Below, one piece after another: positions 2,072-41,636 of a stretch of DNA of 64,000 bases. The stretch comes from Candidatus Eiseniibacteriota bacterium. GTDB taxonomy: Bacteria > Eisenbacteria > RBG-16-71-46 > CAVPCR01. Position 1 is the stretch's first letter. The number at the start of each line of letters is the position of its first letter. The notes below the pieces were generated by a model. That model had not been told where the DNA came from. It was given only the letters and a program-made list of their open reading frames with translations, and ran no database searches. The position numbers were made by a program, and so were the translations under genes. The stretch lies in contig CAWGMA010000001.1 of the NCBI GenBank assembly GCA_963823555.1, positions 64,001-128,000 on the forward strand, read 5' to 3'.

Positions 2072-2521
2072 CTAGGAGAAGGCCACGCCGAGCTCGCGAG
2101 CCACCGTCTCCTGCACGAGCACGGTCTCGCGATGCTCGTGGTCGCGCAACCGGGCCAGGAGAGCGATCAGGCTATCGCGCACGTCCTCGACCAGATTCTC
2201 CTCACGCTGGCTCAGCGCACGATCAAGGATAGCACGCATTTCGGCCAGGATCTCCAGGTGCTCGCGGCGGAAGATGGCGAGGGCTGGAATCAGCTCGCGG
2301 CGATCGGCGGCGAGGATCCGCAGGAAGCTATTTTCCTCGGCCTCGTAGTGGTGCTCCAGGGCACCGTGCAGACGGTAGATCTCGCCCCGCAGGGTCGCGA
2401 TCTCGGTTCTTGGCGTGGACCGAGCCTCCGCGGCGCCGATCAGTTTCTCGACCCGCTCGATGCTTCGCAGAAGCTCCCGGTGCTCCTCGAGCACCGATCG
2501 CCAATCGAGGTGCTCCGACAC
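2072..2521 (-). CDS. Hemerythrin/HHE cation-binding domain protein
   Basis: GGAGGAGG RBS before GTG at 2521; EEH...HHYEAEE...EH...HEHRE helical metal-ligand pattern. Confidence 0.75.
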   Translation of the reverse strand: MSEHLDWRSVLEEHRELLRSIERVEKLIGAAEARSTPRTEIATLRGEIYRLHGALEHHYEAEENSFLRILAADRRELIPALAIFRREHLEILAEMRAILDRALSQREENLVEDVRDSLIALLARLRDHEHRETVLVQETVARELGVAFS

Positions 2522-2560
2522 GGTCCACCTCCTCCCAGCATCCAGGCGCCCCGGGACCGT

Positions 2561-2580
2561 TGTTGAGGATAATTTCAACA
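2561..2580. promoter_or_regulatory. Palindrome TGTTGA-N8-TCAACA, candidate operator
   Basis: Perfect 6-bp arms in an AT-rich patch just upstream of the hemerythrin gene. Confidence 0.45.
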
Positions 2581-2598
2581 GCTATCTCCATGTAATTC

Positions 2599-2614
2599 TG
2601 CAAGATGCATGCCG
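2599..2614 (-). promoter_or_regulatory. Sigma54 -24/-12 promoter for the hemerythrin gene
   Basis: Minus strand reads CGGCATGCATCTTGCA, matching YGGCAYG-N4-TTGCW with exact GG-to-GC spacing; weaker second copy TGGCACCCGGACTGCT at 2626-2641. Confidence 0.55.
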
Positions 2615-2888
2615 CAGGCGCGGCGAGCAGTCCGGGTGCCAGATATGGGGTTAGACCAGCGAGGGTGTCGATCACGCTGACAGTCTGTCCCTCCTGCGGC
2701 CGGATGCGGTTCCGAGTGGCAGTGCGGTGATCTGGGGAGTCTCCACCGATCTGGAGGTCAGGATCCGGGCCGCTACCTTCGCCAGTTCAGCCCCGGCCCC
2801 GCACCCGCCGGAGTTGCGGCATAATGGTCCCTCGCGACCAAAACCACCCTCGCGGCAGACTCCTGAACTCCCAACCAACGAGCACCGC

Positions 2889-3656
2889 ATGATCTCGAGT
2901 CCGACCACGCACAAGGGCACCCACCCCGATCGCATCCCCTGCTTGATCTGTGGCCGACCTGGTTCCGAACTCCTGTGCTGTATCCAGGCTCCCCGACTCA
3001 TCCGGCTCGAGTCCGAGGGCCGCGTTCAGAGCTATGGGCCCGGACAGGTGATCTTCCATGCCGCAACGCCGCCGCTGGCCCTCTACTGCCTGTGTGAGGG
3101 ACAGGTCAAGATCTTCACGACGGCGATCAATGGTGTCGTCCAGATCCTCCGCTTGCGGGGTCCAGGTGATCTCCTGGGCTATCGCGCCCTGCTCGCAGGC
3201 GAGCCCTATGCGGCCACCGCTCAGGCGATCACCGAGGTCAAAGTAGTCACGATCAAGGCTGAGCACGTGCATGCCGTGATTCGAAAATCACCCGGCGTGG
3301 CGTCCTGCTTCCTGCGTTTGCTGGCTCGCGATCTGCGCGTGTCAGAGGAGAATCTGGTCGCGTGTACACAGCTTCCGGTCCGCCGCCGTACCGCGCGCTT
3401 TCTCCTCTCTCTCCTCGGCAGCGCGCTGCATCCCCGAAAGGCCGGCGGCACGGTCTCGTTGAAGCTCCCGATCTCCCGGATCGAGATGGCGCAGGTACTG
3501 AGTACGACGCCGGAGACGTTGTCTCGCGCGTTGCGGTCGCTCGCGGAAAAGGGCGTCATCTCGGTCCAAGGGAATCAGCTCGTCGTGCGAAGCGTTTCCG
3601 GCCTGGTCGCGGCGGCCGGCCCCGACTACCACCGGCGCTTGAGCAGGAAGCACTAG
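2889..3656 (+). CDS. Crp/Fnr-family transcriptional regulator (FNR-like)
   Basis: N-terminal CLIC-x8-CC cysteine cluster; cNMP-binding fold (GQVIF, GQVKI, GPGDLLG); HTH with TTPETLSR recognition helix. Confidence 0.9.
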   Translation: MISSPTTHKGTHPDRIPCLICGRPGSELLCCIQAPRLIRLESEGRVQSYGPGQVIFHAATPPLALYCLCEGQVKIFTTAINGVVQILRLRGPGDLLGYRALLAGEPYAATAQAITEVKVVTIKAEHVHAVIRKSPGVASCFLRLLARDLRVSEENLVACTQLPVRRRTARFLLSLLGSALHPRKAGGTVSLKLPISRIEMAQVLSTTPETLSRALRSLAEKGVISVQGNQLVVRSVSGLVAAAGPDYHRRLSRKH

Positions 3657-37349: not shown

Positions 37350-38810
37350 CTACCGGCCTCCCTGGCCCTGACCTTGCTGCTGCTGTCGTTGCAGTCCAGG
37401 GACGCCCGTCACGTTCTGGATCCGCTGGCGGAAACGGGCCTGGTCCTGGAGGGTCTGGGTGCTCGGCAACAGGGCCACCTTCTCGCCCTCGTCGAGCCCG
37501 GAGAGGATCTCGGTATCATCCCAGTTACGAACCCCGATCGTGACCGGGTGCGCCACGAGATGGTCGCCGTCGACCACGAAGACGAACGCTTCGCGGCCGG
37601 TCCGCCCCGCTTCGCGCCGCCCACCGCCGCCCTGGCCGGCGGGCGCCGCCTCGGCCGTGCCCGGTCGCCCGCCCTCATGATTGCCTCGTCCCCCGGCGCC
37701 ATCGGTTCGTCTCCCGCCGGCATCGCCTCGTTCCCCGCCGGCATCGCCTTCCGATTCCAGGCCTGCCACCTGGATGCCGAGGGCGGCCGCGGTCTGGCGG
37801 GCCTCGACCGGCGTCCGCACCGCCTCGTTGGGCACCGTGAGGGCGGCGTCGCGGCGGTGGATCTCGATCTCCACCTCGCAGTTCATCCCGGGCAAGAGCA
37901 AGCCGCGATCGTTCGGGATGCGCACCAGCACCGGGAAGGTGGTCACGTTCTGCTCGACCACGGCCGCGGGCTCCACCTTGAGCACGGTGCCCGTGAAGTG
38001 CACGTTGGGATAGGCATCGACGACGATGCCGGCCTCCTGACCCTCGTGGATGCGGCCGATGTCGGTCTCGTCGACGAGCGTGCGCACCTGGACCTCATCG
38101 AGATCGGCCATGCGCATGAGCGTGGTGCCCCCGGTCACCTGCGACGTCGCCGAGCTGATGATCTGTCCCTCCTCGACGCTCTTCTCGATGATGACGCCGG
38201 CCGAGGGGGCGCGCACGGTGGCCTCGATGAGTCGCTCCCTGGCCAGGTCGAGATCGATCTCCGCCTTGACCAGGGCGGCGCGGGCGTTGGCGTGATCGAG
38301 GACGACCTGCTCGTGTTCCTCGCTCGACACCACCTCGCGTGCCAGGAGCTGCTTCGAGCGCTCGAGCCGGCCCCCGACGATCCTGAACCCGGCCTGGGCG
38401 ACTTCGAGCTCCGCCTCGGCGCGGGCCACCCCGTTCTTCGGATCCTTGGGATCGATCTGGGCGAGGAGCGCTCCCTTCTCGACGCGGTCGCCGGATTCCA
38501 CGGGCAGCCTCAAGATCTCACCCGAGGCCTTCGATTTGACCTCGACGATGCGCACCGGTTCGAGCACGCCGGTCGCCGCCGCGGAGACGATGAGATCCTT
38601 GCGCGCCACCGAGCCAACTTGATAGGCGCGGGCGGCTCCGCCGGAGGGTTCCCCGTTCTTCCTCCCGCCGCAGCCGGCAGTGGTGAGTACCGCCACGCCG
38701 AGGAGCGAGGCCATGAAGAGGGTGAGCGACGGCCAGGCAAAACTCCGGCACGGTGACAGAGGCCTCGCCGGGGCCTGGCGACGGGCGCCCTGGAGACAGG
38801 AATCGAACAC
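37350..38810 (-). CDS. MacA-like periplasmic adaptor subunit
   Basis: GAGGTG RBS before GTG 38810 (alternative ATG 38714); VKSKASGEI, VRAPSAG, VDETDIG, LLPGMN. Confidence 0.9.
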   Translation of the reverse strand: MFDSCLQGARRQAPARPLSPCRSFAWPSLTLFMASLLGVAVLTTAGCGGRKNGEPSGGAARAYQVGSVARKDLIVSAAATGVLEPVRIVEVKSKASGEILRLPVESGDRVEKGALLAQIDPKDPKNGVARAEAELEVAQAGFRIVGGRLERSKQLLAREVVSSEEHEQVVLDHANARAALVKAEIDLDLARERLIEATVRAPSAGVIIEKSVEEGQIISSATSQVTGGTTLMRMADLDEVQVRTLVDETDIGRIHEGQEAGIVVDAYPNVHFTGTVLKVEPAAVVEQNVTTFPVLVRIPNDRGLLLPGMNCEVEIEIHRRDAALTVPNEAVRTPVEARQTAAALGIQVAGLESEGDAGGERGDAGGRRTDGAGGRGNHEGGRPGTAEAAPAGQGGGGRREAGRTGREAFVFVVDGDHLVAHPVTIGVRNWDDTEILSGLDEGEKVALLPSTQTLQDQARFRQRIQNVTGVPGLQRQQQQGQGQGGR

Positions 38811-38870
38811 GGATCACCTCGGAAAGGGGCAAGAGCACCTGGGGGGCCGGCTCAACCGGCTGACCATGAA

Positions 38871-38897
38871 GACACCGCCCGGGGAGCGGGCGTTGAA
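38871..38897 (-). promoter_or_regulatory. Predicted ECF-sigma promoter TTCAAC-N15-GGTGTC
   Basis: Same bipartite motif as the two copies flanking the ECF locus; correct orientation about 60 bp upstream of the macA-like start. Confidence 0.65.
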
Positions 38898-38984
38898 TGG
38901 GCCGCGATCTCTCCTCGTGGCTCAGGCTACGCCGGGAGCGTAGCACAGGGCGGGGAATGGTCCGGACGTGCCCCGGCCGGAAAG

Positions 38985-39022
38985 CGGGACGCCGGAAGCC
39001 TCAAGAGGCCACCGGCGTCTCG
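38985..39022. terminator. Long stem-loop, probable terminator
   Basis: GACGCCGG/CCGGCGTC stem with inner GCCTC/GAGGC; followed by CTTT on the minus strand; strand ambiguous. Confidence 0.6.
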
Positions 39023-39548
39023 TGTCCTTATCCCCGCCGTCCCGCGGACTGGCTCTCGGGTTCTCGGTCCCGATCGAGTGCGCGAAGCACTCAGTGCCTG
39101 CTAAGGCTCCGGGTGAACGTTCGAGCTCCCGCTCGCGGGACATGAGGGGCTATGTGGTGTGGGTCCAGAGGAGTCGATTGGTTCGCACCCTCCTTTCCGC
39201 TCTCGAGCTCAGCGTTTCGCGGCAGCGTGGTGCGAGCGGGTTACCGGCCCACTCGCTGGCCGCTCACGTTGGGATCGCGCATCCGTTCCAGGCCGCCGGC
39301 GGTAAGTCCGACAGTGTGGCGTTCTTCGCCCCCTGCCGGTCCGGCGGTTGCCGTGATGCACACCCGCGGCAACGCCGAGCGAGTCTCGTCCGGGCCTTCC
39401 ATTATCAAGCCCCCCCGGTTCCGCCGCTTCGTAGCCCCGATGCCCACTTGTAGGCTGTCCGGCAACGAAAGCGTTCCGGACCGGGTCCGGTTCACGATGA
39501 CGGTCGGGCCGCGGGGGATTCAACCCATTCCACGATCCGCCCGGACGT
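38985..39548 (-). ncRNA. Candidate structured non-coding RNA of unknown family
   Basis: No credible ORF; several stem-loops; upstream sigma54 element; downstream terminator-like hairpin; internal AAAGGAGG with no properly spaced start codon. Confidence 0.45.
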
Positions 39549-39558
39549 TCATAAGTTT

Positions 39559-39574
39559 TGCACATGTCGTGCCG
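39559..39574 (-). promoter_or_regulatory. Sigma54 -24/-12 promoter
   Basis: Minus strand CGGCACGACATGTGCA (one mismatch to YGGCACG-N4-TTGCA), followed by AT-rich AAACTTAT. Confidence 0.6.
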
Positions 39575-39784
39575 CCGGGCAATACCGGCGTGTGCCCGGT
39601 CGAGTCAACTCGATCGGCAGCCGGGCGCCTCGCCATGTGTCGGTCCCGCCATCATCAAGAGCTCGGAGTACGGCTCGGCGCCCGCGCCACTTGCTCGAAT
39701 GGGACCAGATCGATACAGAGGCTCGATCCGTTCGGTGGACAAAATGACCGCGGGCCAAACCGGGGGCTCGCCTTCGTGTCCTGC

Positions 39785-41519
<1,735 letters not shown>

Positions 41520-41636
41520 TGGTCCCGTCCTTGTCTGGCGAATGGGCTCGATGGATGCAAAGTCTACTCAAGCCGCTACCTGCCTGGCAAGGACGCTCGC
41601 CTGTCTGAACGGGTCAACGCAAGCCCTGGAGTCGCC

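Follow-up and report, generated by a model that had tools for sequence, protein, structure and literature searches.

Introduction

CrcZ is an RpoN-dependent, abundant standalone RNA that binds protein, and the CrcZ/CrcY group is defined by Hfq in the genome together with AANAANAA-type motifs. OLE, ROOL, GOLLD and raiA are large structured RNAs of several domains, and Rfam holds models of these four and of Pxr. Pxr of Myxococcus xanthus is a standalone structured RNA of three stem-loops under a sigma54 response regulator/kinase pair (PMC10217877). CsrB and RsmZ are abundant standalone RNAs that bind protein (PMC7652899). On the side of signal input, the NmpRSTU system of M. xanthus joins a protoglobin kinase and an NtrC-like activator to sigma54 promoters and a hemerythrin target; in the main text of its description the activator site is GCGCA-N5-TGCGC, the globin kinase is predicted to be active in oxygen, a second kinase inverts the signal and the term "small RNA" is absent (PMC11841059).

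In this study, a locus in a Candidatus Eisenbacteria genome (G000) was analysed within a stretch of 64,000 nucleotides, called the window, in which an earlier sequence-only reading had proposed a standalone sigma54-driven structured RNA. That proposal is supported by the limits of conservation, covariation, contigs from RNA libraries, the presence of rpoN and a separate promoter-like element downstream: the element is a real non-coding RNA gene on the minus strand, from about 39548 to 38980. It resembles Pxr in being a standalone structured RNA, and it is predicted to depend on a sigma54 response regulator/kinase pair, but it has four domains in place of three stem-loops, matches Pxr neither in sequence nor in Rfam, and lies between glnS and a membrane-fusion gene with no adjacent regulator; a short processed form is not seen, though the contigs cannot exclude one. 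Like CsrB and RsmZ it may be a protein-binding RNA, but it has long helices and three-way junctions and no repeated loop GGA. The CrcZ/CrcY definition does not cover it, as Hfq was found in 0/5 genomes and A-rich motifs number 0-1 per RNA. With OLE, ROOL, GOLLD and raiA it shares a large size, here over 500 nt, and its several domains, but not its narrow range, its predicted control by sigma54 and an oxygen sensor, or a place in Rfam, and no covariance-model match to any of the four was found in the window or in the homologous loci L002 and L060. With NmpRSTU it shares the predicted input, whereas the site here is GACA-N3-TGTC and no inverting hybrid kinase like NmpS was seen among the neighbours scanned. 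Among sigma54-driven bacterial non-coding RNAs the element forms a new family, distinguished by its size, its fold and its probable control by a globin sensor. No publication on it was found in the literature covered.

The locus and its neighbours

The window corresponds to G000:C1:64001-128000 of a genome of 4.6 Mb and 67% GC. The RNA lies in a gene-free gap of 974 bp (38811-39784) whose neighbours, glnS and a MacA-like gene, are likewise encoded on the minus strand. This gap is the largest in the window, as had been stated; the only longer interval by the ORF filter used, 40337-41636, is the frameshifted glnS. The glnS gene itself (window 41571-39785, minus strand) is broken over several frames, likely by long-read errors. 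In the second species of the genus (G001, locus L002), the ortholog of the membrane-fusion gene occupies the same position with 74% identity, and a gene on the opposite strand separates glnS from the RNA, so that the RNA is not a glnS tail. This extra gene (L002:697-1203, minus strand) encodes a secreted protein without a Pfam match, and a short tandem repeat lies 3' of the 3' hairpin in the same species (L002:2145-2200).

Downstream, an extended -10-like element stands about 130 bp before the start codon of the efflux operon in both genomes, and its distance from the 3' hairpin differs between them, at about 40 against 160 bp. A leader role for the RNA is unlikely because the downstream operon thus has its own conserved -10-like element. 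The genome encodes 17 full sigma54 activators, none of them within the window. The features of the locus are collected in Table 1.

Table 1. Features of the RNA gene and its surroundings, in window positions
Feature	Position	Strand	Basis
sigma54 -24/-12 element; predicted start 39548	39559..39574	-	rpoN present; kept in G001
Non-coding RNA, about 570 nt	38980..39548	-	BLAST match to G001, RNA contigs, covariation
Conserved TTGACTC at about -60, possibly a site for a DNA-bending protein	39602..39608	-	same offset in G000 and G001
Candidate activator site GTCATTTTGTC, one mismatch from GACA-N3-TGTC	39738..39748	-	common to G000 and G001
Degenerate second activator site, GACA half-site (putative binding)	39770..39780	-	G000 and G001
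Domain I, rod closed by P1 from +2, three-way junction cap	39387..39547	-	hand-built
Invariant hairpin GCCUA-CAAG-UGGGC	39442..39455	-	identical in 3/3 homologs
Domain II: closing helix P7, long interrupted hairpin, hairpin P14	39210..39377	-	two-sided changes
Hairpin P14, self-complementary loop CCGGUA	39233..39255	-	sequence and fold comparison
SD-like GGAAAGGAGG region, partly in hairpin, no conserved start codon	39168..39198	-	invariant
Conserved C-rich linker CCACA.C.CAUAGCCCC, mostly single-stranded	39146..39162	-	3/3 homologs
Domain IV, rod, three-way junction cap with two short hairpins	39032..39149	-	folds
3' hairpin, likely terminator (short U tail)	38985..39022	-	pair probability about 1.0 in G000 and G001
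Extended -10-like element belonging to the efflux operon downstream, outside the RNA	38937..38945	-	TG.TA...T in both genomes
Neighbour: glnS, 3' part	39785..40450	-	Pfam PF03950/PF20974
Neighbour: membrane-fusion (MacA-like) gene, then MacB-like permease	37350..38810	-	Pfam

Conservation and coding potential

A BLAST search of 61 genomes yielded one real match, in G001 (69% over 39582-38981), and three short weak ones. Identity between G000 and G001 is 65% inside the RNA and 46% in each flank. A third copy, L060, lies on a metagenome contig and was the one real match among 29 metagenome-pattern loci; the genome-pattern search gave 42 loci, of which one was real, with a sequence identical to that of G001. 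Conservation in relatives, for which a check had been advised, is therefore present in G001 and L060. In L060 the similarity sets in at the predicted +1/+2 and breaks off shortly ahead of the 3' hairpin, so that this copy is probably a joined transcript contig. This fits better than a mobile insertion, which was considered owing to a fragment of a papain-like gene that adjoins the RNA there.

Wider searches did not extend the family. A 20-mer search allowing 2 mismatches in 206 genomes of the class returned G000, G001, 1 chance match and nothing else. Two models (R1 and R2), each applied to 151 and to 5 genomes, gave weak matches and no convincing homolog; these large searches scored 17-18 candidates per genome, and distant homologs may be missed. 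The 12 weak matches inspected comprised 9 in coding-like ORFs, 1 simple repeat and 2 that stayed unexplained, and none of the 12 had a sigma54 site upstream. The model match L126 lies antisense to a transporter-like gene. Viral contigs gave 0 matches in both searches and phages 0, while one 30-nt match in plasmids was attributed to chance. There is no paralog in G000, no such RNA in the DNA 3' of glnS in G004 and G008, and no match listed by the profile search at the glnS locus of G003; absence from G002 is uninformative, since that assembly is without glnS. Among the 206 class genomes searched by sequence, the RNA was found only in one genus.

Reading frames are lost between the homologs, and 0/5 of the ORFs overlapping the RNA have a Pfam match above the cut-off. 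These two results uphold the claim that no protein-like ORF occupies the gap, and the former also answers the suggested check for a conserved small ORF. The indels between G000 and G001 point the same way, with 2/16 being multiples of 3; read errors in G000 do not explain them, because RNA contigs confirm about 520 nt of its letters. On the antisense strand the three homologs have an ATG and an SD-like run in common, and the frames that follow diverge at once. A cmscan against Rfam 15 (4227 models), as had been advised, assigned the window, L002 and L060 to no family: there were 0 matches at the gathering threshold and 6 at E 1.7-10, all far below gathering. That the element lacks the hallmarks of RNase P, tmRNA, SRP and 6S RNA agrees with a full gene of each elsewhere in G000. 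The GGG-UGCGA-ACC stretch was considered as a T-box and rejected; the T-box motif UGGN is missing and the synthetase gene lies upstream.

Occurrence in RNA libraries

The stretch is present in 20/23 listed sequencing runs, 17 of which are RNA runs from sediment and water, and the top share of the 801-bp query in these 17 is 0.68, about the share that the RNA has of the query. The runs were found using the RNA's own stretch, and many are sediment samples of one year, maybe of one campaign. Contigs were examined from six RNA runs (X1, X2, X6, X10, X12 and X20) and two DNA runs (X7 and X18). In 6/6 RNA runs the RNA occurs as a single contig confined to 39014-39535. The contigs of X1 (39033-39532, depth 338, adapter at both ends), X2 (39014-39535, depth 31) and X6 (39025-39531, depth 8) have no mismatch, cover 500-522 nt in a single piece and end 13-17 nt inside the predicted start; those of X10, X12 and X20 span 39019-39358, 39027-39425 and 39014-39438. 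All six end at 39014-39033, the foot of the 3' hairpin.

In the DNA run X7, clean pieces of low depth extend over the flanks, and one of them crosses the 3' end. The DNA run X18 has clean pieces only inside the RNA, as in the RNA runs, and in X1 one piece of depth 2 runs across the promoter (39533-39683). Such contigs reveal neither strand, ends nor level, and the absence of RNA contigs over the flanking genes was not taken as silence. Alone, the contig stops are a weak hint; they gain weight because they agree with the limits of conservation. The RNA occurs in RNA libraries as a discrete piece.

Fold and covariation

The folding z-score is -4.1 on the minus and -3.1 on the plus strand in G000 and -2.9 against -1.6 on the other strand in G001; for L060 by itself neither strand reaches significance (-1.5 and -1.2). 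The helices of a hand-built model contain 33 G-U against 6 A-C cells, which favours the minus strand. Together with the z-scores of G001, this count better resolves for the minus strand the G-U evidence that had been described as mixed. Folded separately, G000 and G001 adopt largely the same layout, in which domain I, closed by P1 at +2, is followed by domain II, an SD-bearing hairpin, the C-rich linker, domain IV and the 3' hairpin; the free fold of G000 shifts register inside domain I.

Covariation was assessed by folding one species alone and reading its pairs on the other through a sequence-only alignment. The pairs of G001 read on G000 gave 13 two-sided changes against 6.2 expected (p 0.004), compared with 5 against 3.7 on the opposite strand (p 0.30). 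Reading G000 on G001 was marginal (8 against 4.2, p 0.049), and there the pairs of the opposite strand are likewise better retained than under the null (p 0.003). On L060 the G001 pairs showed 0 two-sided changes against 1.5 expected. The hand-built model has 120 pairs with 16 two-sided and 14 one-sided changes and 349/359 cells paired; selected by eye, it lies above the free fold by 7.8 kcal/mol in G000 and by 30 in L060. An automated pair count on alignment A3 was not above shuffles (215/500). With only three sequences, two of them 83% alike and thus too few for covariation at the R-scape level, the covariation check that had been recommended came out in favour of the fold between the two species but not in L060.

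In the hand-built model the two-sided changes fall in P1 (3), P2 (1), P7 (3), P10 (2), P12 (3) and P14 (1), and one P2 position reads C-G, U-A and A-U across the three homologs. The P14 loop could pair with the invariant ACCG at 39303-39300, a possible tertiary contact whose bases, being invariant, offer no covariation. The individual stems predicted by the sequence-only reading fared unequally. Those at 39232-39256 and 39076-39092 are present in the homologs that cover them, that at 39457-39481 is kept as a 4-bp core only, and the hairpin at 39347-39373 is absent from the folds of G000 and G001, its bases lying in longer-range helices. The terminator-like stem at 38985-39022 recurs in the homologs covering it, but with 3 U behind it was not flagged by a terminator scan. 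The start-less SD-like run was correctly recognized: GGAAAGGAGG at 39198-39189 is invariant over 10 nt in 3/3 homologs and complementary to the 16S tail of G000, and no conserved start codon lies behind it. Its proposed pairing with CTCCT is likewise found, as GAGG/CCTC, in the homologs covering it.

The predicted sigma54 promoter and the candidate upstream activator site

The sigma54 element CGGCACG-ACAT-GTGCA is present at 39574-39559 on the minus strand as had been claimed. By itself the element is weak, with 2 mismatches to the sigma54 consensus, and 354 sites in G000 are equal or better, but it is retained in G001. The promoter (39582-39549) is 76% identical between G000 and G001, and the suggested search for rpoN found an intact gene in G000. 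Sigma54 very probably uses the predicted promoter.

Farther upstream, GTCATTTTGTC is the only 11-mer common to the upstream regions of G000 and G001, at -200 and -201, and in both genomes a GACA half-site lies 32 bp upstream of it; the two upstream sites of a cytochrome promoter are 33 bp apart. A perfect GACA-N3-TGTC precedes 5/153 intergenic sigma54-like sites against 0.33% of control windows, an enrichment of about 10-fold for a motif that was fixed after the first matches had been seen. The common upstream motif of the set is G(A/T)CA-N3-TGTC, and the genes behind palindrome and sigma54 site include two hemerythrins and a multiheme cytochrome cluster. Across the 206 genomes, the combination of site and promoter occurs at 12 places in 10 genomes against 1 control match. 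Several of these places lead to redox genes, as read from translations (a cytochrome ortholog, a Rieske protein, a UbiB-like kinase and a ferredoxin-bearing reductase), and others do not; the 10 places other than the two of the RNA itself yielded no comparable RNA.

Only 1/17 activators carries the paired motif before its own gene, namely the receiver-AAA-Fis activator (G000:C3:119331-120857) that lies beside a histidine kinase of the protoglobin-HisKA type. The two genes adjoin each other in G000, G001 and G003, and the sensor domain of the kinase matches HemAT 1or4 (E 3e-13). Similar sites stand upstream of the activator in G001, and more degenerate ones in G003. On these grounds the protoglobin-linked activator is the somewhat favoured candidate for binding the RNA's upstream site, although other activators could read it. 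The RNA is likely a member of an oxygen/redox regulon, because its upstream site, which the sequence-only reading had not noted, resembles the palindrome of the redox genes. As no inverter was seen among the neighbours, it could be induced by oxygen rather than by the loss of oxygen.

Some further loci were noted alongside. At G000:C3:117000-120900 (L139; L162 in G001, L163 in G003) the kinase is convergent with the activator, and this is likely the head of an oxygen/redox regulon that also shows at promoters in other genomes of the class. Within the window, a hemerythrin gene (2072-2689, minus strand) with palindrome and sigma54-like promoter is divergent from a regulator of the Crp/Fnr family (2727-3656, plus strand), and the pair adjoins a multicopper oxidase gene. 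Divergent multiheme cytochrome clusters with three activator sites lie at G000:C4:289600-297200 (L140), and in their G001 ortholog the promoter is of the CGGCACG-N4-GTGCA variant seen at the RNA. Another palindrome lies ahead of a gene for a universal stress protein, which has a 2-oxoacid oxidoreductase as its neighbour.

Other RNA candidates in the genome

A second apparent RNA, at G000:C1:171498 to about 171790 on the plus strand (L168), lies directly behind an activator gene and combines a sigma54-like promoter with a terminator and long hairpins whose loops read CCUCC. Its rough z-score is -9.4, it has no Rfam match and it is not alignable to the RNA of about 570 nt, so that it is probably a separate non-coding RNA. 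At G000:C3:122729 to about 123085 on the plus strand (L139), a sigma54-like site is followed by a structured stretch rich in GGA (18) and a terminator-like hairpin; this stretch, 1.9 kb from the protoglobin-linked activator, is a candidate CsrA-binding RNA. Sigma54-like promoters followed by structured, apparently non-coding stretches also occur at G000:C1:2128004 (plus), C1:1496614 (minus) and C3:300102 (plus). The CsrA gene (L133:1501-2265) shows an apparent Arg/Pro/Ser-rich C-terminal extension of 200 residues, which could be a read error at the stop codon.

Discussion

The reading preferred here is tentative and falls somewhat short of even odds as a whole: a standalone sigma54 RNA, activated by an NtrC-type regulator paired with a protoglobin, that folds into a stable multi-domain structure holding proteins. 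An oxygen-sensing protoglobin kinase would signal to the NtrC-type activator, which, bound at the -200 site, would switch on the sigma54 promoter; the transcript of about 570 nt would fold into a stable multi-domain particle that binds and holds proteins and neither codes nor pairs with mRNAs. For the last step, action through protein partners, elimination and anatomy together make a case that comes close to an even chance. Invariant sequence lies mostly in helices and junctions and both ends of the RNA are closed by helices, which suggests a folded particle that is recognized by a protein. Hfq and ProQ were found in 0/5 genomes (81-99% complete in the Hfq search).

That absence counts against a trans-acting RNA, whole or processed in the manner of Pxr, whose C-rich linker (an anti-SD plus CAU) would block the ribosome-binding sites of respiratory and redox mRNAs. 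The linker is conserved and mostly unpaired in 3/3 homologs, its complement is an SD-like run plus AUG, and the start region of a nuoJ-like gene, so labelled by reading the protein, ranks second of 3098 for it; Pxr itself arises by the processing of longer forms and requires a sigma54 regulator (PMC10217877). However, the best and second-best linker duplexes lie within the range of shuffles (12.5% and 32.5% of 40), and the nuoJ duplex weakens from -31.8 to -22.8 kcal/mol in G001. The RNA contigs, moreover, are long single pieces. Base pairing is thus unlikely, and the suggestion of a processed sRNA like Pxr could not be sustained, as nothing matches Pxr, no kinase/activator pair adjoins the gene and three of the contigs span 500-522 nt unbroken, although contigs cannot exclude processing. 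The sequence-only reading had also raised a GGA-type protein sponge, in which the RNA would titrate the genome's CsrA. A csrA gene is present in 5/5 genomes of the order (fliW was found in 0/5), GGA occurs 21, 21 and 24 times in the three homologs against 17.3, 14.7 and 14.6 in shuffles (p 0.14, 0.013 and 0/300), and both G001 and L060 carry four GGA in succession as well as a CAGGA loop. Yet GGA is not preferentially conserved (6/19 against 0.26 for all trinucleotides), ANGGA is not enriched (4, 3 and 2 against 3.5, 2.4 and 2.6 in shuffles) and neither is CANGGA, most GGA lie at helix ends, the CAGGA loop reads AAGAA in G000, and a scan of the genome for CsrB-like clusters found nothing above background. 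CsrB itself uses repeated CAGGA(U/A/C)G in loops, and the SELEX hairpins were weak (PMC7652899). The sponge is therefore quite improbable.

Two other readings would retain the sensor and the promoter. The RNA could be a ribosome decoy that, upon a redox change, sequesters 30S subunits by pairing of its start-less GGAAAGGAGG with the 16S tail, an idea to which the invariance of its 10 nt in 3/3 homologs, its complementarity to the 16S tail of G000 and the missing start codon lend themselves. In G001 and L060, however, most of the motif is predicted to lie in base pairs, so that its conservation may be structural, and the decoy has a slim chance. Alternatively, the RNA could form an RNA-only oligomer, joined through its self-complementary CCGG loop, for which its size, its multi-domain fold and the near-invariant palindromic loop would speak; RNAs of the OLE, ROOL and GOLLD type form protein-free multimers through kissing loops (PMC12286853). 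Against this, there is no Rfam match, the RNA occurs in one genus only, and the loop could pair intramolecularly in a contact without covariation, so that the oligomer is equally hard to credit. A chain from globin sensor through sigma54 to an RNA that acts in either of these two ways is, taken together, rather improbable; it would make the RNA a redox-switched machine in an uncultured phylum. Least credible is that the element is not standalone but serves the efflux operon as its leader or riboswitch, extends glnS at the 3' end or is the mRNA of a small protein. In G000 the genes on either side run in the same direction as the RNA, the U tail of the 3' hairpin is short and ORFs of 73-328 aa overlap the gap; but a gene on the opposite strand separates glnS and RNA in G001, the efflux operon has a conserved promoter-like element of its own, frames are not kept and the RNA contigs stop at the 3' hairpin.

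The range of the RNA is narrow, comprising three sequences and, in the material searched, a single genus. Large bacterial RNAs with several domains are rare, and for most of them no trigger is known; this one has a predicted input with a defined DNA site, so that its induction is directly testable. The analysis further brings to light a likely oxygen/redox regulon under sigma54 in Candidatus Eisenbacteria.
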